DNA of 64,000 nt from a virus: positions 64,001 to 128,000 of IMG/VR virus record IMGVR_UViG_3300045988_176357. One strand, 5' to 3'. Below are positions 14,857 to 36,392 of the stretch, one piece after another. The notes under the pieces were generated by a model, which worked only from the letters and a program-made list of their open reading frames with translations, was not told the DNA's origin and made no database searches. Position numbers and translations under genes: made by a program. Positions within the stretch are counted from its first letter, which is position 1. Every line of letters starts with the position of its first letter.

Positions 14857-15375
14857 GCAGGTGAAAGAAGCTGTGCTGCACCTTGTGCGTGACTACGGAC
14901 TCGCTCCTCTGGATGCAAAGGCGATTGTCAAGAAAGCCGGTGCAGGCAGCATACTGAATCCTGTATCAACTTCGTACAGATTATTCAAATCTGCCGCGTA
15001 GATGGTTTAGAGCGACATGTGGAAACCTGCCGACATCGGCTACTCTGAAGTACAGAATGTTCCTCCGCAGGTGACACAGGAAGATATTCAAGGCAAGGCA
15101 CTGCAGGACGAGCGCTAGATGCAGACTGTGCAGCGTGCGGCTGAAGCAGGTGTGAAGTAGGTGTTCGATACACAGACACTTAAGATGCTTGTGCAGGCTG
15201 CTGATCCGCATGAATAGGTACTGTAGGCGCTGCCGGACTTCATGAACACGCTCGATAAGCTGTGCAAGCTGCTGTTCCTTTTCAGATGCCACTTGAGCGA
15301 TATGTAGAAGAAGTACGGAGCTGTGAAGCTCAGATCACTTTAGTTGTCCATCAAGAACACGCTGAATGATCTGTC
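14857..15375 (+). CDS. Hypothetical protein (about 172 aa); frame overlaps the end of the upstream ORF
   Basis: Frame 1 open 14701-15375; first ATG at 14857; TGA stop. Confidence 0.4.
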
Positions 15376-18098: not shown

Positions 18099-20030
18099 AT
18101 GATACAGAAAAGAATCGTCCCTTAGGCTTCCGATTTCGGAGGATAGGAACCTGTACAGATACTTAAAGTCAGTTCCAAAGGGTTGGATAAGTCTGCATCC
18201 ATGCAGAAACGTGCAGCAGCTTTCGACGACATCATAGCAGATCTGAAGCCGATGCCCAAGAAAGCGTACCTGCACGTTATCACTACTGGAGCGATGTAGC
18301 ACTTCGGTATCAACAGGAACTGCTTCGTAGCAGGTACTATGGTTGTCACCTGGAATGGCACGAAAGCAATCTAGCACATTCGTGTGGGTGATCTTGTGCA
18401 GAGCGGCAGCGGTTAGATGCGTAGGGTTAACGACACATCTGCCAGGTGGTACAAAGGTCAGCTTGTAAAACTGACAGCAAAGAACGGATAGATCGTTGTC
18501 ACCATGACATAGGATCATCCGGTACTTGTTCTCGATGCCAGCTAGAAGTGGGGCGACTTTGTTTCTGCCAAGGATATCAAGCCTGGAGCTAAGTTGCTGG
18601 TACCTGACGACAAAGTAACATAGACCGCACTGAAATACAATATAACTGTAGACAAGGTGTAGTTCACTTATACAGAGTCAACTGTCGTCTATGACCTGAA
18701 GATCGAAGTCGAACGTACCTTCTGCGTTCCTTTTGTCGTGCACAACTGCGACGGCTGGAATTAGGATGCTTTTGTGTACAGACCTCCGATGCCTAAAAAT
18801 GCATCCTGCAAGTAGATTCAGCTCGATGGCGGACTCAGGAAGTACCATTCGACATACCTGGACAAGGCAGCTGTATATCAGGAGCACCAGACTGACAAGT
18901 AGAAGTCAGGATAGGTGAAAGCAGCTGTGTACAATGATAAGATGCACAGAGGCTAGTTGCTCATTGAAGTGGACACTGACAAGTGGGCATAGCGGCTGAA
19001 CAAGAAGGCGAACGGCCAGGACATATTCCTTTCGGTTGGAGCTTCGCTGAGAACCGATTATTGCACCGCCTGCGGGAATGCAGCGCACACGCTCGACTAG
19101 CACTGTTAGCACATCAAGAAACATGCAGGAATGGTGCTGTCAGACGGTACCAAGATCGGCATGATAAACGATGCTCCCAAGTTCTATGACATCTCAGGAG
19201 TGAACGTACCTGCAGACCAGATGGCATTCGTGCTGCGCAAGGTAGCATCAGGCGACAGTGCAGCCAAGGCCATTGAAGCTGCGAGGTTCCAGGCAACAAG
19301 ACCTCCTATGTCATTGTCAAAGGCTGCAAGACTTCTCGGTAAACTCGCGTAGCTGTAGAAATGCATTCAGTGTGAAGCACAGGACGATCCGATCTTTGCT
19401 GACTCTCCGGAAGCTGTGGAAGATTTTCTAAAAGCGGTATAGAATTACGACGCCGACTAGATCATCGATCAGTGCAACCGCAAGGCAATCCTTCTGTCAC
19501 CGAAAATGCTCTTTAAGATCCTCGGCAAGGAATCTGATAATCAGTAGCTGTTCAATACCTTTGCCTAGAGCTGCCCTTGCAGTGGTCAGCACCTCATGTA
19601 GGATATGCAGCAGGACTAGGAATTCAAGCCTATGCTCAGCGACGGCAGTTTCGATTCTGTGCTTCCTGTAGATCTCACTTTATAGGATGTTCTTAAACAG
19701 TTCATACCTTAGTTTGGTGTCAGCAGGCCTGCTCTGAACGGCAAAGCTATACGAATATAGATAACATCCGCCTAGCCTTAGAAAGATATGCAGCAGTTCA
19801 AAGACAAACTGCAGGACAGCATGCAGGACTCAGAATCGAGTTAGGACGATGATTCCGGTGATCGACAGAATGAGGATTCAGACAAAGAGGAGGATATGTA
19901 GAAGAAGGCGTCTCTCGTTGGAGACCAGTTCAGAAGAACATATGCCAGATACGTTCTGAGTTTTGCTTAGCGTAACAGTTAGGACACCTGCATGTTAGCC
20001 ATGCAGAAGCTCGCCAGATATAAGTAACGT
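18099..20030 (+). CDS. Hypothetical protein carrying a mini-intein; 3' end approximate
   Basis: Frame 0 checked 18099-19352. Contains HFGINRN|CFVAGTMVVTWNGTKAIQHIRVGDLV...TMTQDHPVLV...VVYDLKIEVERTFCVPFVVHN|CDGWN. Confidence 0.5.
18321..18746 (+). mobile_element. Mini-intein (142 aa) in hypothetical protein
   Basis: Hint block A CFVAGTMVVTWNGTKAIQHIRVGDLV; block B TMTQDHPVLVLD; block F/G TVVYDLKIEVERTFCVPFVVHN followed by +1 Cys. Confidence 0.7.
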
Positions 20031-20212
20031 CACTCTCTATGTGAGATAGATAATCCCAACAAAAAGGTAATATACCCATGAGTATGCTTAACAAGAAAGC
20101 CGCTTTTCTCCACGATCTGCTTGTTCAGTCCGGAGCGCTGCACAAAGTTGCAGGCGGCGAATAGATTACAGAGAAGAAGCTCGATGCTCCGCAGCCCACT
20201 ATCGGCGACAAG

Positions 20213-21333
20213 ATGCAGAATGAAACCGAAGAGGCTACGAATGGCAACTATGCTTCCGATCCCAGTGTGAACGCCGAGGTCAAAGGCACTGTCGAAATGG
20301 TAGAGAACAAGATCGAAGGCGACGATGACAAGAAGGCTGAAAAAGACCTTGCAGAGACCGGTACTGATGTGAAAGACGTATGTCCTGCAGGTATGCCTAC
20401 AGGAACTCCTGCTCAGGTTGCAAAGTCTGCAGCTCTCAAGCAGAAGCTCACGGCCTGCATCAATGCCCAGATCGAAAAAGAAGCCGCTATGAAGAAAGCA
20501 GCTGAAGAAGCTGAGCTTGCCAAACAGGCTGCAGCTAAGCAGGCTGAGAGCAATGAAGTGATGACAGCTACCGAAGTTCTTAACAAGGTTGCATCTTTCA
20601 CTGAGGACAAAACAGCTGAAGAACTTGCAGCGCTTACTGACGACATCGAAGTCAGCTTCAAGAAACTCGCTGCTACCAATCCGCTGTTCAATGTTGCCTG
20701 CGAACAGGCTCTGATTCGCAAGATGGCAGCTGAGGTTGAAGCTCTTTCAGCATCTGAAGGCATTCCTCCGGAAGAAGCGGCTGCGGCGCTCGATGCTGCT
20801 GTCGCTGAAGATCCTGAAGCGATGAGTGAACTTACTAACGAGGCTGAAGGTGAGGCTCTGTCTGATCTTGCAGCTGCGGAACAGGACTCTGCTGCTCTTA
20901 TGGACGGACTCGACCAGACCGCTGCACAGCTCTCTGAAGCTCTTGGTGAACCCGTTACAAGTGACGATATTCTCGCGGCTGTCGATGAAGTCACTGCTCA
21001 GGCCGAACAGCTTGGAGTTCCTCCGGAAGCTCTCGTTCAGGCTGCTGCAGCTGAGATGGCTCAGGGAGCTTAGATCTCTCCTGAAGATGCAGCTGCTGCT
21101 GAACAGCTTGTCAGTGATGCTGCTGCTCAGGGTGTTTCTCCCGAAGAGCTTGTCGAAGGCATTGCTCAGGCTGAAGCTGGTGCTGCCCCTGTCGAAGGTG
21201 CGCCTGCGGAGGCTCCTGCAGCTGAACCTGCACCCACTGAAGAGTAGCTCGCAAAAGAAGCTTGCCTCAGAAAGCTCGCATCTACGAAGCGCGGCGCCAA
21301 TCTCATGAAGATTCTTACTGCCAGCGGCAAGTA
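20213..21333 (+). CDS. Ala/Glu-rich acidic coiled-coil protein, putative scaffolding or head decoration protein
   Basis: 286-aa track ORF extended through 2 TAGs to TAA 21331-21333. Composition AELAKQAAAKQAES...AAEVEALSASEGIPPEEAAAALDAAVAEDPEA. Sits upstream of the capsid candidate. Confidence 0.45.
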
Positions 21334-21345
21334 AGGAGCGCACAA

Positions 21346-21750
21346 TGTCACAGGACTTCCAGAAGATCGCTGAAGAAGCGATTAAACAGTGCGCAGAATA
21401 TGAAGCTCGCATTAACCAGCTCCAGGAACAGATTGCTCTCACCAAGAAGGCAAATCTGGCCGATCCTGAGCTGGTTAAGAAGTCCGTGGAAGCTCTCACT
21501 AAAACAGGAGGTATCACGGCATAGCAGGCAGACGAGACAGCTCAGTTGCTTGCCCACGACCCAAATGCCTCCTTAAGAGCTATTCAGGCTCTGTGCGACC
21601 GCTACACTGACGCAGCTCCCATTGTGAAAAAAGAATCCGATATATAGGGCGGCAGGCTTGTTGATACATTCAATAAGCAGGCATCGGCGGCTCCTGTTGA
21701 AGACGCATACGCTGCAGTTGCCCGTGTCCTCGGACTAAAGATGAATAAAT
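21346..21750 (+). CDS. Small hypothetical protein (about 135 aa)
   Basis: Frame 1 ATG after scaffold stop, 2 TAGs; end approximate. Confidence 0.35.
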
Positions 21751-21763
21751 AAAGGAAACTATT

Positions 21764-22348
21764 ATGGCTATTACAAGGTCTGTTAAACAGCAGTACGAGT
21801 ACTACGTTGCTGTTAAGAGCGGCGTTCTTGATGAGACCAACTGTCTCATGCACACGGCTGTGCTGAATGAGAATGCCGATAAGGTTGTTCGCGGCTCTGT
21901 TATCTCTCTGAATGCTGCGGGCGAATTCGTGCTTGGGCTTACTGAAGGTTCCGGCAATCTGTATCCGATGCCCTGCTTCGCGAAGAAGAATGCGTTTGAT
22001 CCGGATGTCATGACCGGCGCTGTCGGCAGTGCTACCGGCGAAGTTATCGCCAGTTCTACTGTCGGTAAGAAGATGTCCGCCTATGTTGCTACGGGTGCAT
22101 TTGAAATCGAATCCTCTGAGTTCGATAAGGATGCTACGTATGCGATCAATGCTGCACTTGTCTGTGCTGATGGCGACAAGCTTGGAAAGGTCACTCCCGG
22201 TGGTGCGAACGCTGTGTACGGAGCGAAGACTGTCGTCGGTATCGTCAGTGCGCTTCCGTTCCGCTCCAAAGCCAGCCTGAACGTGAACGGCACTGCTGTT
22301 AACCGCATCTGCTTCTGGTCGGTCTTCTTCCCGCCGAAGCGTGGTTAA
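21764..22348 (+). CDS. Hypothetical structural protein (194 aa, TAG-free), possible head decoration
   Basis: Clean ORF with TAA stop inside the capsid module. Confidence 0.4.
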   Translation: MAITRSVKQQYEYYVAVKSGVLDETNCLMHTAVLNENADKVVRGSVISLNAAGEFVLGLTEGSGNLYPMPCFAKKNAFDPDVMTGAVGSATGEVIASSTVGKKMSAYVATGAFEIESSEFDKDATYAINAALVCADGDKLGKVTPGGANAVYGAKTVVGIVSALPFRSKASLNVNGTAVNRICFWSVFFPPKRG

Positions 22349-22404
22349 TCCGCTGTAAGATAAACCAGGGGAGCGTGTCTCCCCGATAACTATAGGAACG
22401 CAAT

Positions 22405-23418
22405 ATGTACACTTCCGATCAGATTGCTGCCATCAATCAGGAGTTTAAAGACAAGCTCCTCAGCGATGACTCCGCTATGGTGAAACAGGCGGGACTCGCA
22501 GGCACCACATATTTCCGTACGCGCATTCGCTAGAATGCCGTATACCGCAAGCTTCTTCCTCCGGTCTCCGTTACGGCTGACAACTTCGATGTGAATGAAG
22601 CCTCCGACCTTCCCAGCATGATTGTCGAGCTCGACATCAACTCCGAAGGTGCAATGCAGGTTCCGTTTGAAACGGCTACCACCGGCGCAACCTTCAACGG
22701 ACGCAAGGCGAGATGTGAATTCGGGCGCATCATGACGCCGAAGTACGAGATCGACAAAATCCGTCTTACCGGATACAAGATGCCGATCCTTGACATCCTG
22801 TACGACCTCATGCTCAAAGACATCATGGATGTCGAAGACGAAGCGTGGGCGGCTGTCAACCAGGAAATCGTCGGCAATGCTGATAACCAGACCGATCAGA
22901 TCGCTGAATTCGGTCTCCGCCGCGCTATCCGCCAGACCTGGGATCGTGAAGGCGTTGCCGGTCTCGGTGCTGCGGCTGCCGGATTGCTCCGCACGAAGGG
23001 CAAATTGAAACCGTCCAAAGGACTCATGAACGAACTTCTGTACATCAGAATGGCTGAGTGGGATCGAAATACCGTTGGCGGCGATATGGCTCAGGACATG
23101 CTGTTCGATGGTGTCACGACCGGCAAGCTGAACAAGCTCGATGTCCTCGTCACCTCCAAGGATACTGTCTGCTCCGAATACGATCTGTGGGTGTTCACTG
23201 ATCCGCAGTTCTATGGTGCGAACTACACGTACCAGGATGTCAGCATGGTTACGGACGAAAAGGATGGAATCTTCCTGAACTTCTTCGCCTATGAGACCAT
23301 CGGCGGTATCGTTGTGAACAGAGCCGGTGTCTGCAAGGTCACGTACGATGCGAAGAACATCAACGAGTGCACCTTCTGGACTGATCCGGTTGATGCTTCC
23401 GACGCCATCGGTGGCTGA
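22405..23418 (+). CDS. Putative major capsid protein (337 aa)
   Basis: Size and position (after the scaffold-like gene, followed by a strong terminator); only 1 in-frame TAG. No motif-level proof. Confidence 0.35.
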
Positions 23419-23442
23419 TTGAAATCAGGTTGCTGATTATAA

Positions 23443-23472
23443 AAGCCCTCCGTAACAGGAGGGCTTTTTTTA
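23443..23472 (+). terminator. Rho-independent terminator
   Basis: AAAAGCCCTCC-GTAACA-GGAGGGCTTTTTTT downstream of the capsid candidate. Confidence 0.7.
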
Positions 23473-23520
23473 TGTCCTTAATGTGGTAAACTGTAAGAAA
23501 CCAACAAGAAAGGAAGTATT

Positions 23521-24309
23521 ATGTCAGTAACTATTCAGACCGTCATCACCAACAAGAGTCGCGGAGTTCGTTCCCTTATTGTTTCCAGATCAAAGACGTA
23601 CAGTCTCAGAGCAGGAGAGACAGTAGTTCTCGATTACGATATCTGGTCGTACCTCACACCTACAGTAAAACGGAAACTTGAACTGGATGTGCAGATGGGA
23701 AGACTCGAGATCACAACAAGGCTGTTCACAGACAATGCCAACATCTCTGTCGACCCTGATGGAACATATAAGATTGCCAACGGCGGACTTGAGGTCGCCA
23801 AGCCCAAAGAGCAGGTGAAAGAAAATAAGCTCCCGGCAGCCAAGGCTGACAAGGCCACCACCAACGGAAAACTGTTTGACAACAGTGGTACGGTTATGGC
23901 TGACAAGAGCTCGTCTGTCATGCAGAAAGCCATCGGAGCCAAGCGTGTTGAGGCTGGTAATACAGATCAGACAGAACAGCCTGCACAGGACAAAACAGGA
24001 TTCACTAAAACCGACATGAGCTCCTCGGGTCTTATGCATACTATGAACAATCTCGAACCTGCACATTCATCCAGCGTGTTCAAAGCCACCTCGACAGATA
24101 CAACCAAAGCAGAGGAAGAAGCCAAAACAGAAACAGAGAAAGAACTGTCACGTCCTGAATACATCGACGAACTGTATGCAGCTAAAGATTACACAGCCAT
24201 CGCAGGAGCGCTGACAGAGTGGTATCCTGGAACAACGTTCACAAAGGCTTCTATCAAGAAATGCAACAGCTATGCTGAACTCAAAGAAAAGTACCCTGTG
24301 CTTGCGTAA
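23521..24309 (+). CDS. Hypothetical protein (262 aa, TAG-free)
   Basis: Clean ORF, TAA stop. Confidence 0.45.
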   Translation: MSVTIQTVITNKSRGVRSLIVSRSKTYSLRAGETVVLDYDIWSYLTPTVKRKLELDVQMGRLEITTRLFTDNANISVDPDGTYKIANGGLEVAKPKEQVKENKLPAAKADKATTNGKLFDNSGTVMADKSSSVMQKAIGAKRVEAGNTDQTEQPAQDKTGFTKTDMSSSGLMHTMNNLEPAHSSSVFKATSTDTTKAEEEAKTETEKELSRPEYIDELYAAKDYTAIAGALTEWYPGTTFTKASIKKCNSYAELKEKYPVLA

Positions 24310-24364
24310 TCAGGCTTATATAACGCTCCGCACTTTGTAGCTCGCTACATCATAACCTCCTCCT

Positions 24365-24420
24365 TTCTTCCGTCTGTACAGTATTACTCCTTTTGCTGTA
24401 CAGACGGTCTTTTATTACGC
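24365..24420 (+). terminator. Rho-independent terminator
   Basis: 12-bp stem CCGTCTGTACAG/CTGTACAGACGG followed by TCTTTTATT. Confidence 0.65.
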
Positions 24421-24461
24421 ACTCACCTTAGTACAGTATAGGAACACAAATGCGTAAATAG

Positions 24462-24998
24462 ATAATTCAGTTTGTAACAGGAACTTAGGGATAGATACAG
24501 CGACTGTGTCCTGTAGCTACGCAGCAACAGCGCCTTATCCTCAATACAACTACAGGACAGGTATTCTGGGACTATGCAGGTGTACGGCATAAAGTAACAG
24601 CATAGATTGCCGACTGGAACCAGCAGGACTCAGATGCCGAGTCGTACATAAAGAATAAGCCTGTAATACCTTCTGATATCAGCCAACTCACAGACAACAC
24701 AGGGCTGATACCTAAAGATGTTACCGATCTTACAGACACTTCAGGTAATGTCGGCTACCTTAAATAGAGTGTCAATATGCAGGATGTAACACAGGACTCT
24801 GGTGCATATTACCTGCAACTTAAAGCCACCAGACTGCCGACATTCATACAGGCACCCTCAGGTGCTGTACATGATATATAGGGAGATTCTCTTACGGTAA
24901 CACCTACAGGGAGTGTGAAGATGAACCTCTCAAGGTATCTTGCATACGAGAATGCAACAATAATAAACTCTCAGTGGAGCTTGTTATACAGTTAATAA
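24462..24998 (+). CDS. Hypothetical protein with tail-fiber-like N-terminal repeats (SDISQLTDNTGLI / DVTDLTDTSGNV)
   Basis: Frame 0 checked 24324-24998, 9 TAGs, TAA stop. Confidence 0.4.
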
Positions 24999-25014
24999 AA
25001 TTAAGGAATGTAAA

Positions 25015-25281
25015 ATGAAAGACAAAGAGTAGAAAGTACCCGGTACCGTTGTGTAGATTAAGTCGGTTGAAACCTGCGATGAAGCTTGTGAAACTTGCAC
25101 CCAGTAGTGCTCTGAGGAGAAGCTTCAGGCTTTGTAGCAGGCTTTACAGTACTCACAGTTTTAGGTCATACAGAAATCAATTCTGCTTGTTGCAGTAACA
25201 GGTAAATTACAGTGTATGATCGGTACAATCCAAATAATTCTCCTCATCGGGCTTATGATCCATATGTTTTTCTTCATGTGA
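25015..25281 (+). CDS. Small protein with Cys-rich N-terminus and C-terminal transmembrane helix, holin-like candidate
   Basis: MKDKEQKVPGTVVQIKSVETCDEACETCTQQC...LLVAVTGKLQCMIGTIQIILLIGLMIHMFFFM, TGA stop. Confidence 0.35.
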
Positions 25282-25284
25282 TAA

Positions 25285-25680
25285 ATGCGGTACACAAGAA
25301 CCTAGCTGGCTAACCACTATAACGTCACAAAAGGAAAGCTTCGGCGTATATTGAAAGCGCTGCAGCTTCAGCCTGTGTAGGTTGAACGTACTGCTACAGG
25401 GCGTCCTGTGTTCTATTATGCCGACAGCACTGTGTTGTAGATCGACAAATACCTGGATGCTCTTATGCAGAAGAAACAGCAGTAGCTTGTAAAGTGCTGT
25501 ATATGTAAGCAGAGTGTCAGTAAGAGCAGTATGATCGGCGGCAGATGCCAGATGTGTTATGTGAAGAAGTGCTGTGCACCTATTATGTACGGAAAGTAGT
25601 TCTGGAACAGGAAGGTAAACGCACAGACTGTCAGCACAGCTATTCGTTATCTGCAGTCAATGTTACCTGGCTCCACGTGA
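25285..25680 (+). CDS. Putative HTH DNA-binding protein with C-terminal Cys-rich zinc ribbon
   Basis: LANHYNVTKGKLRRILKALQLQPVQVERTATGRPVFYYADSTV then CCICKQ...CQMCYVKKCC; frame 1 checked, TGA stop. Confidence 0.4.
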
Positions 25681-26072
25681 CAGGTTTGAACAGTCTGCGA
25701 AGCTTCCTTCTGGTGGCTTTCTTTTTGGCTTTTCTGTGCATCGAATCCGGTGTGACCTATCTGCCACCTGGAGTAGAATTCATGCCGTACAGTGAATTGA
25801 AAGAGCCGTACTTCTTTATGTAGCGCTTTTCCAGTCTGTCCAGCTGCTTGTTAGGCGCCTATTGGAGTATCTAAACTGAGAGCTGATCCCAGTTACCTGT
25901 AGCTTTGAGACGTTTAAGCTCCCTGACCAGCTTTGTACAGCCTGACCAGGGAGCCTTGTGTCGCTACCAGCGCTTTGAGAACGGCGTAGTGGATATGCCT
26001 ATGTAGTGCTTCTGTCCGCTTGTTATGAGATACACATAACCGTTACCCTTCTTGGGTACGTACTAAAAGTAG

Positions 26073-26492
26073 TCAGGATGCATCACCAAGCAGCTCTTTT
26101 ACACAGCATCTTTTGCTGTGTCTGATTTTGTTCATGTGGTAGTGAGCTGCACCGCATCCTCTGCACACATACAGCTGCTTCTTGTGGAAGTCACTAGATA
26201 CATACAGACTGTCTATGTTGAACAGCAGCTGACGCACTTTGCCTGACACTGATCGCTTGTTCCAGTCAGCAAGGTCGCATGAAGTGTGCCACAAAGCGCA
26301 ATCAGCCGTGTTGCATTTCACTTCAGCGCCTTTTCCGTTCTCATAGACGTGCACTTCAGGAATACTGCCGCAGAAAGGACAAGGCAGAACATGCTTAGGC
26401 AGCTTGGCTGTGCCTATTTCGTACTTGTCTGTACCTGGCACTTTGATGCCGTTCCTGCGGAAGATCTTATCTATGACTGTGTGTTTGTGCAT
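26073..26492 (-). CDS. Lar-family-like zinc-ribbon protein (restriction-alleviation-like), standard stops
   Basis: 139-aa − strand ORF with LPCPFCGS...EVKCNTADCALWH and a second CRGCGAAHYH motif. Confidence 0.45.
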   Translation of the reverse strand: MHKHTVIDKIFRRNGIKVPGTDKYEIGTAKLPKHVLPCPFCGSIPEVHVYENGKGAEVKCNTADCALWHTSCDLADWNKRSVSGKVRQLLFNIDSLYVSSDFHKKQLYVCRGCGAAHYHMNKIRHSKRCCVKELLGDAS

Positions 26493-26596
26493 GCTGTTCC
26501 TGTTGGTGTCTCTCCTGTGAAGTATAAAAGGGGCCAGAGTGCTGCAGGAGTTCAGTACTCTTGTCGACTGGCCGGTCTAGGCCCCTTGGAATTAAC

Positions 26597-26713
26597 TGGC
26601 GCTCCCACTGAGATTCGAACTCAAGATCTGGCGGATTTCATTGATAATCGAGGACTTACAACAATCCTGATATCTCTGGACTATATCATCTTCTCCGTTT
26701 CCAGAGAAGGAGC
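26597..26713 (-). ncRNA. Aberrant 117-nt tRNA-like element: canonical T-arm (TTGAG-TTCGAAT-CTCAG), acceptor 3' strand, discriminator and encoded CCA, but non-canonical 5' half
   Basis: Reverse complement ends ...CAGATCTTGAGTTCGAATCTCAGTGGGAGCGCCA; candidate 5' acceptor strand GCTCCTT lies 117 nt upstream; no standard D/anticodon arms could be fitted and no CTA anticodon is present. Confidence 0.35.
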
Positions 26714-26931
26714 GCTTCGGACTTTCGTCCTACTCCCTTGCGGGATAGTCTCTGAACCCTTTCCGGGCTCCATAGCTTTCGCCTTAGGAGATCCCTTGAT
26801 CGGCTGCTGATTGCCTTCGGCGTTACCCGTTAAGGTGTCCCAGCAATTCACTTTCTTGTTCGACACACCTCGCGGTGTGAAGCTCCAAACAGAGTCCGCT
26901 GTTCTGCCATTAAACTATGGGAGCATAATAT

Positions 26932-27007
26932 TGGTTGCGGGGACAGGATTCGAACCTGCATATCCAAGCTTATGAGGCTTGTCGGCAACCGTTGCCACCA
27001 CCCCGCC
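26932..27007 (-). tRNA. tRNA-Met (anticodon CAU), 76 nt with encoded CCA
   Basis: Reverse complement GGCGGGGTGGTGGCAACGGTTGCCGACAAGCCTCATAAGCTTGGATATGCAGGTTCGAATCCTGTCCCCGCAACCA: anticodon stem CAAGC/GCTTG, loop CTCATAA, T-loop TTCGAAT, acceptor 6 bp plus a G1:A72 mismatch. Confidence 0.7.
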
Positions 27008-27405
27008 ATATGTACACCTTAGTGCGCCTTGGTACTCCTTGTTGTTACATGACTAATCTACTGCAGACGTCGAAAAACAAAACAACTAACGCACTCAGCT
27101 CTAGTAAGCAGAAGCATACAAAAGCAATAATAAAAGGACACAACAATGTAGTTAATCACCAGCTTGGTCGCACTGATACTTGCTATATTCGGCGGGTTTG
27201 GGTATATGGTCAGGCAGACCGAGAAAGGATTCAAAAGGCTCTAGACCAGAATCGAAACCTTGTAGAAGAAATTAGATACGACAGTCGATTAGGACACATG
27301 TTAGTAGAGGCGCTGTCATTATGTAACAGCAGTCTCATTCCAAGAGCAGATAAGTTAGCTTACGTTGTCCATACAGCGCCTGACGCAGATATTAGAGAGC
27401 AAAAA

Positions 27406-27831
27406 ATGAAGTACGCGTTGCTTGCTTGTTCTATATTGTTGTTTGGGTTTCTGTTATCTTGTGCGCCCTTTGGCTCTACTGTATAGCCGCAGCCGAAGTA
27501 GCTGACAGTTGTCTAGCAAATAATACAGTAGAACAAAGACAGCATACGCAGCATATCGAATTAGATAAATCAGGACTATTAGATAGGGTATAGAACACAT
27601 AAACTTATCACATAGGTGCAACCTGAATCCGATCTGCACTATAAATAGCTTGGAAAGATTGTTTAGTCGATTGTGAAGTAGGTTTAGCAACAGGCCAACA
27701 AGACAAAGACTCAGCGCAAAGACAGAGCTAGAACTGCAGCTGTAGCAGTGGTAGCTATAGTTTGCCTGTGCGCTATAGGCAGATCTTGCAAAAGGGTAAG
27801 GGCTATATGCAGATCAAATAGAGATTCATAA
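27406..27831 (+). CDS. Lipoprotein-signal plus C-terminal transmembrane protein, unimolecular-spanin-like; extremely TAG(Q)-rich
   Basis: MKYALLACSILLFGFLLSC (lipobox LLSC) ... C-terminal TAAVAVVAIVCLCAIG; 13 TAGs in about 141 codons; TAA stop. Confidence 0.35.
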
Positions 27832-30394
27832 AGCTAATGGCAAAACTCGGATTCAAGCTGATGTAGAATAAAGCAGTCAGGTTTCAGGTTATCCGAAGTC
27901 TGCTTAAGTATTTATCAAGGATGGAATAATGGCTGATATCTGTATTCCTTAGGTCACAGCAGGTGCTGGTGGTGTTGGTGGAGGACAGGGAGCCGATGGT
28001 CAGGCGTCCCTGATGGCTGACGGACACTATGCCACATCATATGGTGTACCTGTTATAAAGATCACCACAGGAATGACAGCCTAGTACACACTGCAGCTGA
28101 CCAGAGACATGTAGGGAACGATACCTGCATAGCTGTAGGACATGCATATAATTCAGTTCATGTGTCTGGCAGACGGCATGCACGGCAAGGCGCTGTTTCA
28201 AGTACCACTCACATATCTCGGCAACGGACGTGTACAGCTGCACCTCACACCGGCATAGGTCGACTACAGACCTGGGCTGCATTATGCATAGATACATTGC
28301 TATGATGAAAACCAGGCATTACGGCACGTGTTCAAGTGCTGTCTGTAGCTATAGAAATCTTTTGATGGCAGCCACATCGACTGCAGACGACCGATAACCA
28401 TTGCCTAGGTTCGTATGTAGCTGTATGATACGTGCTCAAAACAGAATCAGCTGCTGAATGACCTGTAGTTCTCCGACATCGTTATAGCAAGATGTATCGG
28501 CAGAGCTGTACAGGACTGGAACTAGATGCCTCCGACATTAGCCAACGCTTAGACAGCAGCTTCCTTCCCTTTCCCTGCCAACCTGTGTTCCGGCGCAGCT
28601 GCACATTGTCTGAGAATGGCCATGTACAGATACAACAGGAACGGTATGCGTCACTCCAATGCCGGACTTACATTCGATGACAACGATAAAGGAGCTCTTT
28701 ATGCCAGCCTGGCTGACAAAGCTATGACAGACTGGAAGAGCTGGATAATAGCCAAGAAGAGCTAGCTGAACATGCTGTAGTGCATGGGAAGCATTTCAGA
28801 CGGATTCATGTAGGGTTCGTAGCCTTGGTGGAGGTAACATGTCCTCTCCGTTCGATTCCATAAAGGTATTTGTGCAGCCGAATGGCACCAGAGTCGTCAG
28901 CTGGCAATTTACACATGGAGTATAGATTCCATAGACCGCTACCATAACTGTTCAGAGAGCACGAGCTGGTGGCTAGTGGTAGACATTGGAAGAGGGGCTT
29001 CCTGTCTCTTACTGCTACTCTGATACTACCGCCTGGAACAGGAACAAATATCAGAATGACTATTACAGGCTGATACTTCAGACACAAGACGGTCAGAGCT
29101 ACACATCAGATCCGCAGCATACAGGTATGACTCTCTCATATCCTTACTATTCATAGGCTGCGAATCTCATAAGACTGAGCTAGTTGTAGATACAGAGAAC
29201 AGGAAGATAGGGGTATCTGCTGAAAAAGATAACCTATGGACCAAAATGTCCTGTATGTCAGCAATTCGGTGACGATCATCCTGTAAACTAGCACTGTCCT
29301 CAGTGCCTTGGTACAGGTAAAAAGGGCGGGTACTATAAAGCGATTCCTTTAGGTGTTCTGTAGCAAGGATAGTCAGCTGACCAGTCTGTAGCCATGTCCG
29401 GGCAGTAGGTATCATAGACATTGACTGTGAAATGCACTGCATGGCCGATAATACAGCACGGAGATGTGTGGACAGATAAATATACAAGTCTCAGATACTA
29501 CATAGATAAGATACAGGTCGCTTCGAAATTTAAACATGTGCCTTTGATATATACATTACAGATGCATTTGATATAGCAGTCGGATATAATGTATACTGAT
29601 AATGCTGATCAGCTTATTCAGGAAGCACATGTTTAGTACAGCAACCCTGACTGGGACAAGGCCTTCGGTTAGTTATGATATTTACAGACTACACATAGAA
29701 AAGCACATTTCAGAACGGTTACGCTCAGCAGTACCGTATCATGAAGTACTTCAAGGATCTGCTCAATAACTGGTTTGCAGATAAGAGAAACATAAAGGAC
29801 TAGCGCCTTGTCAGTCTGCTGTATGATGTTAATGGGAATCTGAATAAGGACTGCTTCAAGACAGGTACTGCATTCAATCCTGACGGCACTTATGCAGGTA
29901 CTACACCTGCTGTTGTTGTCAGTCTTGGCACTGTCACATACCAGAACAGACCTATTAACAGAGCAGGCAATCCCTAGTTCCTCAGGAATCCAATGCAGCC
30001 GCCTGTAAAATAGTGCAGATTCAAGCTCATTCCGATTCAAATTACCGTCATTACATAGAGTTGTGACGGTACTATCTTATTAGCTGAACTCATATAGCTG
30101 TTTCTTGCTATGAACAGTTAGGTTATACAGCAGGACACAAATGCTCTAAGTTTCGTCAACGTGAACTAGATAAGCAGTCCACAAGCTGTACAGCCCGGAT
30201 CAGGAGGCAACGCGAAACAGCTGTATGCATCTACCATATCTGTGTCTACTATGAGTGTACTCACTTGGACAACAGATACACAAGGACCTGTGTTCAATGG
30301 TTACAGCATGCGGAATGCGGAGCTCGGCAATATTAAGGTAACTAACAGCTGATATGCCCAACAACGTGTCAGTATCGAAACAATAAGGATAAAT

Positions 30395-32398
30395 ATGATT
30401 ACAGACTATAAGGATCCTAGTGTAACCCTTAATCAGGTTTACAAGGCATCCACTGTCGGTACTACACCGGCGTTGGGAGCCTGTATTATCGGTCCGAATT
30501 ACTTTGTACGTACATATTCCGACCTGAAGGAGTCTCTCAGACTCGACAGTTAGGACAATTACGCAAAGTAGGACTATTCGGTCGTGTATACTCCTGCAGA
30601 CGGACTTTCCTTCAGATACTTCCCTGGAAGAGAGACGAAAGACGGCAGTGTAGACGAAGATTCCGTGAAGGTGCTTGTCAAAAACGCCCAGCTCTAGTAC
30701 CTTCCTGAGTTCGGAGCTTCTGACAGCATCACTACGGATGCAGTGTATGGTACAGATACGATCAGTATCAAACAGGAAGGCATCTACTATGTCTTCAACG
30801 GTGCAGGAAGCGACACATCTGTTCCGGCTGTTCAGGCTGGAGACGCAGTGAAGATCACTGTCGCCGGGGATACTGTTGACTGCTACGTTCAGGGTTTCCT
30901 CAGAGACGACGGAGGCAAGTATACCAAGTGCGTTCTTACCAAGAGTCTTCCACAGGGAGACATCACTGCGGTCAGTTTCAGGCGCGTTGTCGATTGCTAT
31001 GTCAACCAGGCATATGTGACTGTCCGCACCGTCGATGGCGTGCAGCAGGTTTCCATCCAGCCTAATGCAGAGGCGACCGTAGATCTCGGTATCGGTCAGA
31101 CAGAGTATCCTATTCTGACAGGTGCTTTCTATGTCGAATACAGGTGTCGGTCCAATCGCTATGTCGGTACTTATGGCATGGTCGCTGATATCGATGATGT
31201 CCAGGGAATGCTTGGCAAAGTCTGCGCGGACAATCCGCTAGGTGTTGCTGTTGCGTGCGCTGTGACTGAATCCGATGGCGCATTCGTGTACTTCACAGCC
31301 ACTGCATAGGAAGACCTCAACAACAGCGCTGTTAAGGTGTACAACGATGCGGCGGATCTCATTGCCGACACTGACGGCATTTACGGCATTGTTCCGTGTA
31401 CTGCCGATGCAGAAGTTACGAAAAACCTGTTCAACTTCGTGACCAACCAGTCCGGTGAGTAGGTTCCGTATCCCAAGTATCTGTATGGCAGCTGCGACAT
31501 TCCGACTGAAGAGAAGCTGAATGGTACGTATCTCACTGTGACAGATTCTTCTGCTTCCGGCAACACAACTACGGTAACGTTCAGCAGCTCTCCGCTGCTT
31601 GCTATGTCTACGGTTGTTAAAGGCGATGTGCTTCGCATAGGCGATAAGAGCTACACCATCACTGGTTCCAACCACAAGGACAAGGTGTATGTTGCAGGCG
31701 ATCAGACAGCAAATATTGCTTCAGGCGCCGTTGCAGACATTTATCACACGCTGACTGACAACGCTCAGATTGTGGCAAGTATCATTGCGGCTAAACCGGT
31801 TGCCGACAGACGAGCATCCATTGTGTTCGCGGACGGCCCGATGTACAACGGATAGCCGGTTCACAATTACTGTGTTGCAGCTGCTCTTGCTGGAATGCGT
31901 TCCGGAACTTATCCGCATGCTCCCCTCAGCAATGTTACCGTCACCGCTGTCACGACTTCATAGGAGCATGGGTTTACAGCCAGTCAGCTCAAGCAGCTCG
32001 GTGCTTATGGTTTCTGGCGTGTCGGACAGAATGAAGAGGGTGTTGTGATCAGTCGCAGACAGCTCACATCCGCTGCAGCCGATGATGTCAATCTCGACGA
32101 GCAGTCTATAGTCTGCAACATCGACAGCATCTGCATTTCGCTTAAGACCACCGGAAGAGATCTTGTTGGAAACTCGAATATCTCTCCGATGCTCCTGACA
32201 TTGCTTAAATCTACGCTGCTTACGAAACTTGAAGGTTTCCAGCAGTATGTTACGGAGCTCATAGGTCCTCAGCTGCTCAGCGCATCTCTGGATTCGATCG
32301 AACAGGACGAGATACATAAGGATAGAATCTATGCGGACATGTCTGGATAGCCTCCGAAGCCGTTCAACAGATTCCATATGAGATTCTATATGAATTGA
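30395..32398 (+). CDS. Large structural protein, putative tail sheath
   Basis: Frame 2 continuous through track ORFs 30743/31538/32045 joined by TAGs. N-terminus KASTVGTTPALGACIIGPNYFVRTYSDL resembles the T4 gp18 N-terminal GTAALAGKFQWGPAF signature. AAGGA 8 nt upstream of the ATG. TGA stop 32396-32398. Confidence 0.35.
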
Positions 32399-32409
32399 GG
32401 TGACAGAGA

Positions 32410-32925
32410 ATGAAAAGCGTTTTCAATAACCCGTATACACAGGCTCCTTAGGTATGGTCTGCACAGGGTGCGGCTGTCACCTGGGGACAGACATAGGCTG
32501 TCGCACAGGCGAATCAGGCTACAGCGAATAAAGTGTTTGCTGCTCTTGGCGGCATCACGATTAATTATCAGCGTCCTGTCAGCACGAGATATCCGATTGG
32601 CGGATCTGCTCCGATTCAGCTTATCGGAGCCCCTTCCGGTGTAGTGCAGCTTAATACGCTCATCGGACCGTCTACGGAACTCAATGACTTCCTGGATGCT
32701 CTGGCAAGTGCCTGTAAGCCGATAACGATTATCGTTACCAACTCTTCCAGTACATCGGGCTAGGATTGTGCTGTCAAGTCTAAGCCTCAGGAAATTGTAT
32801 GTAACGGTGCGATTGGAAGTCAGGTGCAATACAATCTTATCATTGCTTAGGGTGGCATGGCTATTGCACAAGGTACATTTGTACTGCAGTTCACTGAGAT
32901 GAAGTGGTCCAGTACGAACAGCTGA
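32410..32925 (+). CDS. Putative tail tube protein (about 171 aa)
   Basis: Immediately downstream of the sheath candidate; size typical; 5 TAGs; TGA stop. Confidence 0.3.
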
Positions 32926-33153
32926 CACACAGTACATTGATGTTCAATGATGCGCATGTAAGTTACTACATGCGCATTTTTTATATAGGAGCCAACCTTG
33001 AGCGTTCTTAACAGCTTCACTCCATAGAACCAGCCTCTCACGTATGTGGGCAGCTAGGTTATAGCTGGTGTCATATAGGCCTGTCTGCCGAATACAGGTA
33101 CAGCAGTGGTTCGCACCCAGTCGGCAGGTGTCGACAGACAGTTCTCATGTAAG

Positions 33154-35502
33154 ATGTGTGGTGGCGGAGGTATCTTTGGCGCGAGTGTAGCTGGTCTGCC
33201 TGCTGTCGGTTCATCTGTCATAGCCTGGATAAATAAAGCAACAGGTAAAGGCTACATTCTATCTGTGAATCCAGGCGGAGGGTAGCCTAAATCATACAAA
33301 CTATTCTCTTTGCTGCATACCTACAGATGGAACACACCTGTAGGCGACCTGACTTTTTCCACATAGCTGTAGACACTGATAAGCAAGTATGCAAACAGTG
33401 GCGTGAATTCGACTCCCTGCGGTGCCACGTAGGACACATATCCCGGCGACCTTGTAATCGGTGATAAGTATGGACCGTCTGCGTTCTTCGGGAGAGCTCA
33501 GATAACAATAAAGGGTTCCGGACTTGCCTATACAGAGTTCTCCGGACTGGACAACAGTATAACAGTTGTAGCTTAGCACGCTTAGTTCGACTCTTTCAGT
33601 CAGCTGATATAGCACAGTACAGATATAAGCAGATAGCTAACAGCATCTGGTGCCAAATAGGGTCTTGGTGTCCTGCAGACTAATAGCAGTAAACCTGTTG
33701 AGAATAATCCAGGAGACGGAAACACACCGTCAGTTGACTACAGTGCGTAGTCAGGTGATCCTATTTACAGAACGCAGGAATTTAAGGGCGGACTTGTATC
33801 CGGCCAGTTCAGTTCGGTACTGTCTCCTCTGCAGGATTAGTAGTATCAGGACATGGATATACCTGTGCTTGCTACTAATCATGTATCATACGATGGGTAG
33901 ACAGAAACAGTATCGGCAAAAAGCATCAGAATGATAAAGACACCTGATATCTACGCTCCTCAGCAGATATCAGACTAGACAGCGGCTTAGTTATCCTAGA
34001 AGTAGATTCCTAAGTTTCAGACTCCTCAATATACCTCGACAGATAAAGCGCTGCAGATGGATGCGCTGCTGCAGCAATCAGGAACACAGTACATACTTAG
34101 GAACCAACTTACGGATTAGCAGATTCTCAGTTTGTATTCCAACAATGTACAGTGTCTTGCGTAGCCTCTGACAGCCAGGATAACGGATTGGACAGATTCT
34201 GGACAGGCGTCACAGCAATAGTTAGCTCCATGTCAGTACGCATAGATAACGGATACGTATACAGGACAGCAGAAGCGAGTGTATAAATGCGCGTCATTTA
34301 TCACTCAATAGTAGGATGGGTCTATCCTTATCAAGGATGGTTGGGGAAGTTAGATACGAATGACCGGAGGCAACATCTACATATCCAGTGCGCTCGATAC
34401 CTTTATTCGTCCGGGTCGTGACTGCATAGGTTTGATACCAAGACGTATGTAGCTGGATGCCAATGGAGCAGCTGTTATCGCCTCCAAGAAGTCAGTAAAG
34501 GTAGCTGCCTAGGGCAGTCTGTATCTGTCTTCTGCTGTAGGAGGACAAGATGGTTACACGGTGCTGTAGAACAGATCTAAAACATCGTCTGCCGGTATGG
34601 TGATACGCAGTAACGGCAACTTATCTCTCACTTCATCCAGAGATATGTACATAGGACTAAACGATAAGACAACTACGAACGCAGGAGATAAAGCTACCAG
34701 AGGCTCCGGTTCGATCTGCATCGATGGAAGTGTGCTCATGCTCAATGCGGACAGCTATATGAAAGCCACATCCGGATCCATAGGCTTGTATGGATATTCA
34801 GGTGGTACAGGAGCTGGCGTCGTCATAACGCCTAACGCAACAAGTGTGCTGTCACAGGCTTTCTATGTTAATGTAGGATCTACATTTGTTGGAGCACTCG
34901 GAGGAAGGAGCACTGTAACTGTCGGCAATACTGATCAAACTTTTACAGTCAGTGGAGGTTCAGGTTCAGGTATCATGCATGTCAGAGGCTCTATACAATG
35001 CAAAGATATCACAGCTGACGGCACTATGTCTGTAAATGGATCTTTCGGAGCCGCCAGCTATATGGTACTGGGAACAGAACAGGTAGATATAATACCTAAA
35101 GTAACAATAGATTCATTGCGAGCCTTCAAGCAGTCCATTGCTCGTATATTCCAATATAAAATAGATACTCCATCTATATCGTATCCAGAACAGACACAGC
35201 AATGGTACAACGACAACTATATCTGCAGCAAATAGCTGAGCTTCACCTAGTCAGGTGTGTTGAGCTTTGGTGAATACAAAATGCCAAAGATGTGCTGGCA
35301 GACAAATACCTAGTCCGGTCAGATCTTTTAGCCTGTAATAACAATGGAAACAGGTCAGGATCAGCCGACATCCAAGTCATATCCTGGTAAGTCTGCATGG
35401 TAGGCTGGTACAATTTCAACTCTAGATTAGAATTACTCAGTCAAATACGAACTGCCGCTACAGGGCAACTATACAGTGAATACAGATAAGGAGGACCAAT
35501 AA
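33154..35502 (+). CDS. Tail fiber-like protein(s); frame 1 open from 32962; may be two genes, with a second start at ATG 34549 preceded by GGAGGA
   Basis: Frame 1 checked line by line 33001-35502: 847 codons without TAA/TGA, about 60 TAGs. Gly/Ser/Thr-rich beta-like sequence (GSGSICIDGSVLM..., TVTVGNTDQTFTVSGGSGSG). Confidence 0.45.
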
Positions 35503-36079
35503 TGTCATAGACGAACACTTAGAAAGAACTGCTTACATGTCCGTGCTGTGGAAAACCGACATTCCAGGCTCCGGCTAAAGTCGATGACTAGACTAAACAC
35601 AGGTATCTTGCATGCATTATATCAGGCATGCCTTACAAGCAGACTTACAATCTTTTCGATCGGACAGTAAAAATAACTGTTACATAGTTATCCCCTCAGG
35701 TGACTGATAAGATGGTTCGTCTCGGTGCGCTTACTTCCTTGTAGCAGGATAAAGACAGGAAATCCGTCTTATCTGATCTGTTATCAAGACTGTATAGACT
35801 GCTGCCTGTATAGAACATCAGCATCGTTACAGACACCAGTGTATCTGATTACCACGTGAGCTCCGTATGTCTGTAGATTCTGGAGAAAGCTCTGCAACCT
35901 GACTGTACAACACAGCAACTGTCTGAAATGTACGCACGGCTTGTCGATCCTTCCGTTGTTACATCATTGTCAGCAGGTATTCTCGACAAGGTTCTGGTTA
36001 CACATTCAAGAACCATGGAGCTTCTGATTTCCAGTGGATTTGATGATTCTTTTTATCAGGGTATTCCGCACGCCTGTTA
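35502..36079 (+). CDS. Hypothetical protein with CPCCGKP zinc-ribbon motif (about 192 aa)
   Basis: Frame 0 checked; TAATG overlap with upstream stop; TAA stop. Confidence 0.4.
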
Positions 36080-36373
36080 ATGCTATCTCAGCAACGGGAT
36101 ACCTACGGAGCAATAAAAAGATACGCATAGCGCCCAACGGATCGCAATTTCCTGGCTGTTAAACTGCTGGCATCCTCCACGTAGATGCTGTTAAGGGCTG
36201 CTGGTATTCAAATAGCCGCATAGCTTAATATCTAGCTCAATAAGGGTGTGCCTGCTGCAATAAATGACATACTTGGAAGGGCGAGTAAAGAGCTAGAGAC
36301 AGACCTTACGGTAGACGCAAAAAGTATTTATGAGAACACATTACGCGCTGCCGGATTCAAATTACCATAGTAA
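36079..36373 (+). CDS. Small hypothetical protein (about 98 aa)
   Basis: Frame 2; TAATG overlap; TAA stop. Confidence 0.35.
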
Positions 36374-36392
36374 TAACAGTTGAAAGACGTGC

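Follow-up and report, generated by a model that had tools for sequence, protein, structure and literature searches.

Introduction

The four classical bacterial tRNA group I introns are all of subgroup IC3 (Williams 2020), and reviews place the group I introns of phages in protein-coding genes (PMC4227781). The locus described here is a phage tRNA gene that is split by a group I intron. It lies in a stretch of 64,000 nt (positions 64,001–128,000 of the IMG/VR virus record IMGVR_UViG_3300045988_176357), and this whole stretch is called the window. The gene, on the minus strand, encodes a tRNA(CUA), the predicted suppressor of the in-frame TAG codons of a recoded phage. Several features are shared with the classical bacterial tRNA introns. 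The intron is situated in the anticodon loop and has G as its last base, U-1 (the last base of exon 1) is paired as U.G, and the anticodon stem is made up of the flanking exons. The intron is also small, free of open reading frames (ORFs) and sporadic, and it was detected by the intron mode of ARAGORN together with a sub-threshold match to Intron_gpI of Rfam. Unlike the IC3 introns, however, it appears to be of the IA2 type, resides in a phage, interrupts a stop-codon suppressor and is inserted at the site CUCU/AAA. With the phage IA2 introns (T4 td, Twort orf142 and the DNA polymerase intron of Pf-WMP3) it has in common a homologous core detected by nhmmer, the GUA-linked hairpins P7.1 and P7.2 and the phage host. 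Those introns lie in essential protein-coding genes and frequently include an ORF for a homing endonuclease, whereas the window intron is ORF-less and lies in a tRNA gene.

The suppressors of recoded phages are the other systems to be compared. As in the crAss-like and Lak phages with genetic code 15, a phage tRNA with a CUA anticodon is found together with in-frame TAGs, and the hosts are presumed to use the standard code. The window gene differs in that it is split by a ribozyme, is invisible to default searches and apparently inserts glutamate at TAG. In this comparison TAG is used in nearly all window genes and not only in late or lysis genes. The 'enigmatic introns' of Lak megaphage tRNAs (PMC6784885) are likewise inserts in the tRNAs of alternatively coded phages, with presence/absence polymorphism between close genomes and a highly conserved insert sequence. 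They were detected in Tyr(GTA) and Thr(TGT) tRNAs with the eukaryotic mode of tRNAscan and were left unclassified, and one of them may encode a tRNA (Devoto et al. 2019, PMC6784885). Unlike the window intron, they were reported neither as group I introns nor in a suppressor (PMC6784885). Theta ribozymes, which are minimal ribozymes like that of hepatitis delta virus and lie next to phage suppressor tRNAs (Kienbeck et al. 2024, PMC10879173), contribute to the maturation of these tRNAs in recoded phages, as a ribozyme would here. However, the cleavage site of theta ribozymes is at the tRNA 3' end (±5 nt), and their tRNAs rarely encode CCA (PMC10879173). In the window the intron is internal and the CCA is encoded.

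In the nuclear codes of peritrich ciliates and Blastocrithidia (NCBI tables 30 and 31), UAG and UAA encode glutamate. The window phage would resemble them in reading UAG as glutamate through a tRNA with a CUA anticodon. Those are eukaryotic nuclear codes, whereas here a phage clade has reassigned TAG alone and TAA and TGA still serve as stops. Unclassified tRNA introns in recoded phages (Devoto 2019), group I introns in bacterial tRNAs and ribozyme-assisted suppressor maturation were known before. The open-access literature yielded no report of a phage suppressor tRNA that carries a group I intron, and in the material searched this intron type had no earlier association with tRNA genes.

Results

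The split tRNA(CUA) gene and its intron-less allele

ARAGORN was run with introns allowed over the whole window and called tRNA(cta) c[26597,26924] i(35,252), with the intron after position 34 of the gene. This is the sole CUA tRNA in the 64-kb window. The gene spans 328 nt (26597–26924, minus strand) and consists of an exon 1 of 34 nt, a 252-nt group I intron and an exon 2 of 42 nt. Most probably, positions 26597–27007 of the minus strand are a two-tRNA cluster of a TAG-recoded phage, made up of a tRNA-Met(CAU), a 7-nt spacer and the split amber-suppressor tRNA(CUA). The parts of the cluster, in the order of transcription, are as follows.

26932..27007, minus strand: tRNA-Met(CAU), 76 nt, first gene of the cluster, CCA encoded (ARAGORN, Rfam RF00005)
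26891..26924, minus strand: tRNA(CUA) exon 1, with the acceptor 5' strand GCUCCCA, the D-arm, the anticodon-stem 5' strand GCGGA and the loop bases CUCU (including C34 and U35)
26639..26890, minus strand: group I intron, 252 nt, ORF-less, IA2-like (ARAGORN, Rfam, absence from the allele L001, nhmmer, covariation)
26597..26638, minus strand: tRNA(CUA) exon 2, with A36, A37 and A38, the anticodon-stem 3' strand UCCGC, a 6-nt variable loop, the T-arm, UGGGAGC, G73 and CCA

The two exons complement each other. GCUCCCA at 26918–26924, 7 nt past tRNA-Met, is the exact complement of the acceptor 3' strand UGGGAGC, and GCGGA of exon 1 complements UCCGC at 26631–26635, just 5' of the T-arm. When the exons are joined, ARAGORN gives a clean 76-nt cloverleaf with the 7-nt anticodon loop CUCUAAA. 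This loop has the anticodon CUA, U33 and a purine at position 37, as expected of an amber suppressor. The intron is located between anticodon positions 35 and 36 (CUCU/AAA). Neither ARAGORN in its default mode nor Rfam at its gathering thresholds detected the gene, and only tRNA-Met was called. A preliminary description of the window had also stated that it holds no suppressor tRNA(CUA). The intron-mode call overturns this statement, and it is the very outcome on which the description had staked it. The same description had recorded an aberrant 117-nt tRNA-like element at 26597–26713. Its T-arm, acceptor 3' strand UGGGAGC, discriminator G and CCA were correctly recognised (26597..~26640), but the 117-nt unit does not exist as such. 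It combines exon 2 with the final 75 nt of the intron (P3', P8, P7' and P9), and the 5' half of the tRNA is at 26891–26924. Among the options offered for the element, the intron-containing tRNA was the right one, while the attachment-site remnant and the pseudo-tRNA are not supported.

The exact boundaries of the intron are known because an intron-less allele fixes the junction, and they do not depend on prediction alone. This allele is found in the IMG/VR contig UViG_3300045988_177579 (L001), which is 96.6–97.2% identical to window positions 23963–36420 (12 kb) and aligns in two blocks without exactly 26639–26890. The junction reads GGACTCT/AAATCC in L001, and its exons are contiguous and identical to those of the window. 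A junction moved by one base either way no longer yields this allele. ARAGORN calls an uninterrupted tRNA(cta) adjoining the same tRNA-Met. The L001 tRNA(CUA) (2637–2709), which is the same as the spliced sequence of the window, scored 61.4 bits with the Rfam tRNA model (cutoff 29) and has no non-canonical pair.

Structure and subgroup of the intron

The Rfam model Intron_gpI (RF00028) aligned over its full length at 26656–26929 with 31 bits and an E value of 5e-6 in a 701-nt stretch. For comparison, 18–20 bits for Intron_gpI plus a split-tRNA call were used by Williams 2020. In the Rfam alignment, the intron keeps the classical strings P, Q, R and S as AAUUGCUGGGA, AAUCAGCAGCC, GUUCAGAGACUA and GAUGAUAUAGUCC, respectively. 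The elements of the intron are listed below, where L132 is a distant relative with a homologous intron.

26883..26889, minus strand: internal guide sequence UUUGGAG, read from the sequence, pairs verified
26864..26879, minus strand: P2 hairpin CACACC-GCGA-GGUGUG, with one compensatory pair against L132 (C-G to U-A)
26756..26845, minus strand: P4-P5-P6 domain with the P and Q elements AAUUGCUGGGA and AAUCAGCAGCC (Rfam alignment; covariation in P4, P5, P5a and P6)
26746..26750, minus strand: P7 5' strand GACUA within the R element GUUCAGAGACUA, pairing with 26679–26683, with two compensatory pairs against L132 (GAUCA/UGAUC)
26719..26745, minus strand: P7.1 UCCC-GCAA-GGGA, GUA linker and P7.2 GGAC-GAAA-GUCC (alignment of homologues; P7.2 covaries)
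26691..26714, minus strand: P3 3' strand CGCU, pairing with 26849–26852, and P8 hairpin UUCUCUG-GAAA-CGGAGAA
26679..26683, minus strand: P7 3' strand UAGUC within the S element GAUGAUAUAGUCC (Rfam alignment, pair check)
26639..26678, minus strand: P9 region, ending at the omega G 26639 (substitutions in close copies sit in loops or keep pairs)

At the 5' splice site, GGAG of the guide pairs with CUCU of exon 1 to form P1, in which U-1 makes a U.G pair. The UUU of the guide, 5' of GGAG, pairs with AAA at the start of exon 2 to form P10. The terminal (omega) G is at 26639, so that the U.G pair, guide, P10 and terminal G of the group I splice-site rules are all found. The P6 arm holds a tetraloop-receptor-like hairpin, CCUAAG...UAUGG. 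Subgroup IA2 is also marked by an extended P9 domain (P9.0, P9.1 and P9.2). In the roughly 40 nt after P7' of the window intron one or two helices can be drawn, and this region is not conserved with L132. All of the modelled pairs (91/91) are standard in the window. The helices were checked by explicit strings, since the MAFFT alignment mis-registers exon 2 of L132. The ribozyme helices account for all 252 nt, and no endonuclease ORF is present inside the intron.

Dozens of introns in viral contigs share homology with the intron core (positions ~35–215), with E values down to 1e-14 in nhmmer. RNAalifold on 25 homologous introns gave compensatory changes in 26 of the 32 predicted pairs and recovered P3, P4, P5, P5a, P6, P7.2 and P8. 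The conserved P3–P8 core is present and is supported by covariation, to which P7 contributes twice in the comparison with L132. Guanosine-dependent self-splicing of the intron is predicted. The IA2 subgroup is recognised by two hairpins, P7.1 and P7.2, which are joined through G-U-A and separate P7 from P3' (PMC3428280, PMC4227781). By this hallmark, P7.1-GUA-P7.2, the intron is assigned to the phage-typical subgroup IA2. The IC3 core, with the architecture of Azoarcus and Anabaena, has no P7.1/P7.2 insert. Subgroup IC3, the type of the classical bacterial tRNA introns, does not match, as both hairpins are present. The P4-P5-P4' core recurs in more than 120 viral contigs, none of which has the intron in a tRNA, with the window as positive control. 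ARAGORN calls obtained in these contigs at lowered thresholds looked like false positives.

The split allele in other assemblies

A degenerate 30-nt pattern of the intron 5' end was used to search metagenome contigs. Nine contigs were found, and the intron is directly after tRNA-Met in every one of them (9/9). The same scan of viral contigs gave no matches. The complete split gene, with the same call tRNA(cta) i(35,252), is present in L140, L141, L144 and L146 (contigs of 112–192 kb). The five further contigs hold the 5' part of the intron; four of them end at the edge of the stored sequence, and the fifth, L139, has a different 3' half. The four complete copies carry 1–5 substitutions each against the window. 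Six of the nine distinct substitutions among the copies are unpaired and three keep a pair, as in G178A, which turns a U.G pair of P3 into U-A.

A more distant case is L132, whose capsid-like protein is 71% identical. It has a different tRNA(CUA), which is split at the same CU/A site by a 273-nt homologue of the intron (nhmmer 3e-30). The two introns are 73% identical. Among 70 comparable pairs, 53 are unchanged, 2 are changed on one side and 13 are changed on both sides yet still paired. Five of these double changes are in the intron (P2, P7 twice, P7.2 and P8) and eight are in the tRNA arms. The substitution patterns indicate that the split allele is maintained and not decaying. The relatives in between have an intact tRNA(CUA) (L126–L129, 85%; L130 and L131, 73%). 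Therefore, the intron is sporadic, as is usual for mobile group I introns.

Some other variants of the locus were observed. In L139 (contig OHCS01000202.1, 7859–9433), exon 1 and the 5' half of the intron are the same, and a different 3' half and a gene for a TnpB of 376 amino acids (OrfB_IS605 3e-22; Cas12f1-like TNB 8e-18) come next. Exon 2 was not detected in the next 3.4 kb of this contig. Judged by its sequence, the suppressor gene of L139 is disrupted or IStron-like. Across the clade, at least five non-orthologous types of tRNA(CUA) occupy the syntenic locus (L126 14583–14658; L130 13840–13914; L132 16817–17164; L148 14743–14836). They are the window type, two types that resemble tRNA-Glu, the L132 type, which has an intron of its own, and a 94-nt type whose variable arm is long. 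This diversity indicates that the suppressor locus is a hot spot for replacement. L148 also holds a second tRNA-like sequence, GGGCGCUUAGCUCAACGGUAGAGC...UUCGAGCCACCCAGCGCCCACCA, at ~15020–15108 of the minus strand, right after its tRNA-Met. It has good acceptor, D and T arms and an over-long anticodon region, and it was not called by ARAGORN. Possibly, this sequence is a further interrupted tRNA.

TAG as a sense codon

The preliminary description had expected the genome to read TAG as sense, and both the ORF coverage and the in-frame TAG counts agree. ORFs of 100 codons or more give a coverage of 61% with TAG as a stop and of 98% once TAG is read as sense, and a head-to-tail series of genes is obtained with 5–46 in-frame TAGs each. 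In 41 genes (16,531 codons) there are 650 in-frame TAGs, or 3.9% of the codons. The genes end with TGA (26) or TAA (15) and none with TAG. Aminoacylation of the predicted suppressor and its reading of UAG on the ribosome would be in line with these 650 codons. The genes recognised include a fused beta-beta' RNA polymerase with intein-like inserts, a beta' C-terminal gene, a ligase, a baseplate wedge protein, a sigma-like factor and an SLT domain. A seeming TAG-free early block on the minus strand at 20–23.4 kb was rejected as antisense shadow ORFs.

Two regions depart from the general codon usage. The genes of the capsid module (20078–24309) have normal glutamate codons and carry 3, 2, 0, 1 and 0 TAGs, whereas nearly all other genes are TAG-rich. 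They are a scaffold-like gene (20078–21334), 21345–21752, 21764–22348, a capsid-like gene of 337 amino acids (22405–23418) and 23521–24309. The RNA polymerase gene at 28–5889 carries several intein-like inserts. One of them, with LAGLIDADG-like motifs (residues ~1352–1882, about 4080–5675), has one TAG in 531 codons and 5.65% glutamate, and the flanking extein is TAG-rich. This composition suggests that the insert is a recent arrival from a standard-code source. Further Hint-like inserts are found in 11262–13319 and 18099–20027 (Pfam, below the curated cutoff).

The amino acid encoded by TAG

TAG appears to encode glutamate, not glutamine, in this phage, across the whole window (for example at 28–5889, 11262–13319 and 27929–57326). 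Four independent tests favour glutamate, namely the composition, the columns of homologues, the outgroup alignment and the clade-wide trade-off with GAA and GAG. In the 41 genes, GAA and GAG together make up 2.2% of the codons, TAG 3.9% and the glutamine codons 5.0%. Read as glutamine, TAG would give 9.0% glutamine and 2.2% glutamate; read as glutamate, it would give 6.1% glutamate and 5.0% glutamine. The standard-code relatives L150 and L151 have 6.3–6.7% glutamate and 3.5–3.7% glutamine. Two RNA polymerase genes contain 39 TAG columns; among the standard-code homologues, glutamate (E) is the majority residue in 19 of these, aspartate (D) in 8 and glutamine (Q) in 1. Where at least 70% of the homologues agree, the counts are E 8, D 3, A 1 and Q 0. 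For example, the motif VMEEP of the homologues is VM-TAG-TAG-P in the window RNA polymerase. The residues in TAG columns match the substitution profile of the window's own glutamate positions far better than that of aspartate or glutamine. When recoded relatives are excluded, glutamate is enriched 5–12-fold in TAG columns and glutamine 1.1–1.3-fold.

In ten more families, 141 TAG positions were compared with a standard-code outgroup and stood opposite E in 31%, D in 13% and Q in 4%. In the same alignment, the window's GAA/GAG codons stood opposite E in 38% and D in 15%, and its glutamine codons opposite Q in 18% and E in 12%; the TAG positions agree with the former and not with the latter. Across the clade, GAA plus GAG declines from 7.5% to 2.6% while TAG climbs from 1.3% to ~4%, and glutamine is steady at 3.2–5.0%. 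Of the traits of code 15, in-frame TAG with TAA and TGA as stops is found in the window, but glutamine at homologous positions is not.

The suppressors of relatives were also compared. The tRNA(CUA) of L126 is 80–86% identical over 93–97% of its length to annotated tRNA-Glu genes of GenBank phages, and every labelled one among its top 40 GenBank phage matches is a tRNA-Glu. These matches indicate that relatives carry CUA suppressors derived from tRNA-Glu at the same locus. The glutamine that databases show at TAG columns is the default translation, as seen for all of the TAG codons (25/25) in the protein P0073 (L124 4573–6438). The deposited sequences of P0073, P0060, P0063, P0065, P0066, P0068, P0074 and P0077 are poor in glutamate (1–2.7%) and rich in glutamine (6–8%). 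The deposited proteins of the clade are probably wrong at about 3–4% of residues. In the accessible literature, only glutamine for TAG and tryptophan for TGA are given for such phages (Borges et al.), and a report of TAG as glutamate in phages was not found in the open-access literature.

Neighbouring features

The surroundings of the split gene include three further features on the same strand.

26517..26579, minus strand: branched, GC-clamped hairpin GGGGCC...GGCCCC (26523–26579), followed by UUUUAU
26073..26492, minus strand: Lar-like zinc-finger gene, 139 amino acids, TAG-free, directly downstream (Pfam PF14354 E 0.0046, below the curated cutoff)
25631..26083, minus strand: free-standing GIY-YIG homing-endonuclease-like gene (Pfam PF01541 4e-8; phrog_314 2e-13)

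The tRNA-Met and the hairpin had been described correctly before. For tRNA-Met, the position, the length of 76 nt, the anticodon loop CUCAUAA, the T-loop UUCGAAU, the CCA and the G1.A72 mismatch were confirmed by ARAGORN and Rfam (RF00005, 41.3 bits; cutoff 29), the 1:72 pair being flagged as non-canonical. This G1.A72 is kept in the relative L126 (14662–14735), despite covarying changes in the acceptor stem. An unpaired 1:72 position is an initiator-like trait. The anticodon stem is without the three G-C pairs of bacterial initiators, and tRNA-Met may serve as an initiator, an elongator or an Ile2 tRNA. A close relative of the tRNA locus was not found among GenBank phages.

The hairpin at 26523–26579 is unexceptional by itself (z = –1.3; 19 of 200 shuffles fold at least as well). 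Its layout after tRNA(CUA), however, is kept in the window-type loci, L132 and L148, with a GC clamp, UAGA..., CCUG..GCAG, the second clamp strand and a U-tract. The clamps differ by compensation (GGGGCC/GGCCCC against GAGGGC/GCCCUC). The hairpin and U-tract are probably an intrinsic terminator or a 3' processing element of the tRNA cluster, and the conserved internal sequence may make the hairpin more than a plain terminator. A theta ribozyme or one with a double-pseudoknot fold like that of hepatitis delta virus (HDV) was considered and rejected, as the hairpin starts 17 nt after the CCA and no match to the HDV family was obtained even at E ≤ 10. The corresponding hairpin of L001 (2552–2626, minus strand) gave a weak sub-threshold match to int-alpA of Rfam (24.1 bits; cutoff 35.8).

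When viral contigs were searched with the Lar-like gene, the sole match was the contig of L001 itself. The GIY-YIG-like gene is ~0.5 kb downstream of the intron and contains six in-frame TAGs, so that it would itself need TAG suppression. It cannot be tied to the intron because the intron-less L001 also carries it. For the same reason, collaborative homing by this gene is unsupported. Similar SegE/GIY-YIG-like genes are located close to the tRNA locus in L126–L129 and in L134 and L135. An integrase was not seen among the neighbouring genes examined.

Discussion

Proposed mechanism

The cluster would be transcribed leftward and end at the hairpin and U-tract (26517–26579). The intron would then fold, with the guide UUUGGAG pairing with CUCU of exon 1 to form P1 and its U.G pair at the splice site. 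Free guanosine would attack after U35 (26891/26890), the UUU of the guide would hold AAA of exon 2 in P10, and the 3'-OH of exon 1 would attack after the terminal G (26639). The ligated 76-nt tRNA, with the anticodon loop CUCUAAA, is expected to decode the in-frame TAGs (3.9% of codons), apparently as glutamate. Because the RNA polymerase genes themselves are TAG-rich, the suppressor would be needed before almost anything else is translated. Because nearly all window genes, including those of RNA polymerase, carry TAGs, the removal of the intron would be on the critical path of infection. The presence of the intron varies between genomes that are ~97% identical, and it is present at the same site in the distant L132. 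Most simply, the intron is a selfish element that is nearly neutral for the phenotype.

Several points weigh against this account. The Intron_gpI score of 31 bits is below the curated gathering cutoff of 50, and P3 has only four standard pairs in the window, followed by two A.C mismatches that are the same in the related L122 intron. The promoter-like site upstream of the cluster (27155->27127) is no better than chance. The sequences show the anatomy of the gene, its exact junction, the homology and covariation of the ribozyme, the recoding of TAG and the Glu-like residue statistics. The occurrence of splicing, its independence of protein, the processing of the tRNA, the transcription unit and the charging synthetase are deduced from them. 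The window is a part of the genome (related contigs are 95–192 kb), and a second intact suppressor could lie outside it. As to glutamate, the residue counts at TAG columns come from related, non-independent homologues. The window tRNA(CUA) is not recognisably Glu-like, being 66% identical to E. coli tRNA-Glu and 55–58% to tRNA-Gln, and its 6-nt variable loop counts as un-Glu-like. The nearest GenBank phage matches of the spliced tRNA are other CUA tRNAs or weak tRNA-Asn matches, which are uninformative on the isotype.

Alternative explanations

If the split gene were dead, a selfish intron would have inactivated the suppressor, and TAG would be decoded by a tRNA from outside the window, from the host or from a co-infecting phage. 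Such a reading could draw on the purely sequence-based case for splicing, on the low Intron_gpI score and weak P3, and on the partial coverage of the genome by the window. The disrupted version in L139, with its rearranged intron, TnpB gene and no detectable exon 2, would also suit it. Yet the exons are identical to those of the functional-looking allele of L001, all 91 modelled pairs are intact, and the substitutions among five independent copies avoid or preserve helices. Moreover, the L132 homologue keeps its helices through compensatory changes, and there is no other CUA tRNA in 64 kb, though 3.9% of the codons need one. A dead gene is thus regarded as very unlikely. That 26597–26713 is a tRNA-derived attachment-site remnant or a pseudo-tRNA fragment is hardly conceivable. 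This segment alone does hold just the 3' half of a tRNA, but the matching 5' half is 252 nt upstream with perfect acceptor and anticodon-stem complementarity, and the insert between them is a group I intron. The ARAGORN intron-mode call and the intron-less L001 allele refute a remnant, and the examined neighbours include no visible integrase.

The assignment of TAG to glutamine, with the tRNA as a glutamine acceptor, is code 15, the sole TAG reassignment reported for phages of standard-code hosts (Borges et al.). Public databases translate the TAGs of the clade as Q, and amber suppressors tend to be glutaminylated in E. coli (Borges et al.). The window and L001 differ by only five codon swaps that involve TAG, too few to favour either residue, and two of them are TAG/CAG; the others are TAG/GAG twice and TAG/GAC once. 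Nevertheless, the database Q is a default, the relatives have suppressors derived from tRNA-Glu, and glutamine is at background in the TAG columns where glutamate is enriched 5–12-fold. The resulting 9.0% glutamine and 2.2% glutamate would also be far from the values of the standard-code relatives. Glutamine is therefore judged improbable. It is somewhat easier to imagine, although still unlikely, that the intron has a function. It might gate the code switch through ribozyme folding, the supply of guanosine or Mg2+ or a protein cofactor, or it might shield the gene or the anticodon loop of the pre-tRNA from a nuclease. Splicing on the critical path of infection, with TAGs in 41 genes including those of RNA polymerase, would fit such a gate. 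So would the persistence of the split allele at the same site in several populations and two distant lineages, the GIY-YIG endonuclease gene 0.5 kb away and the part already ascribed to theta ribozymes in the suppressor-tRNA maturation of recoded phages. However, the intron is dispensable, as it is lacking in the near-identical L001 and in the closer relatives L126–L131. The GIY-YIG gene is also in the intron-less genome, and the 252 nt contain no sensor domain or extra aptamer. The preferred reading remains a split suppressor from which a selfish intron would be spliced.

Implications

TAG suppressor tRNAs were detected in only about 40% of TAG-recoded phages, and missed non-canonical tRNAs are suspected (Borges et al.). 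A split suppressor is a concrete mechanism for such undetected suppressors, since default searches miss the gene and searches that allow introns recover it. As a wider proposal, held tentatively and with considerable doubt, the clade might use an undescribed phage code with TAG as glutamate that databases mistranslate as glutamine. In some members, ribozyme excision from the anticodon might gate the code switch and nearly all gene expression, and split suppressors could explain part of the ~60% of recoded genomes without a found suppressor.

A phage-type IA2 intron inside a tRNA, where that tRNA would define the genetic code of the phage, joins two fields that reviews keep apart. If TAG does encode glutamate, this would be a new stop-codon reassignment for phages, and the public proteins of the clade would be wrong at about 3–4% of positions. 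The intron-plus and intron-minus genomes that occur naturally, being ~97% identical, allow a direct test of what the intron does biologically.

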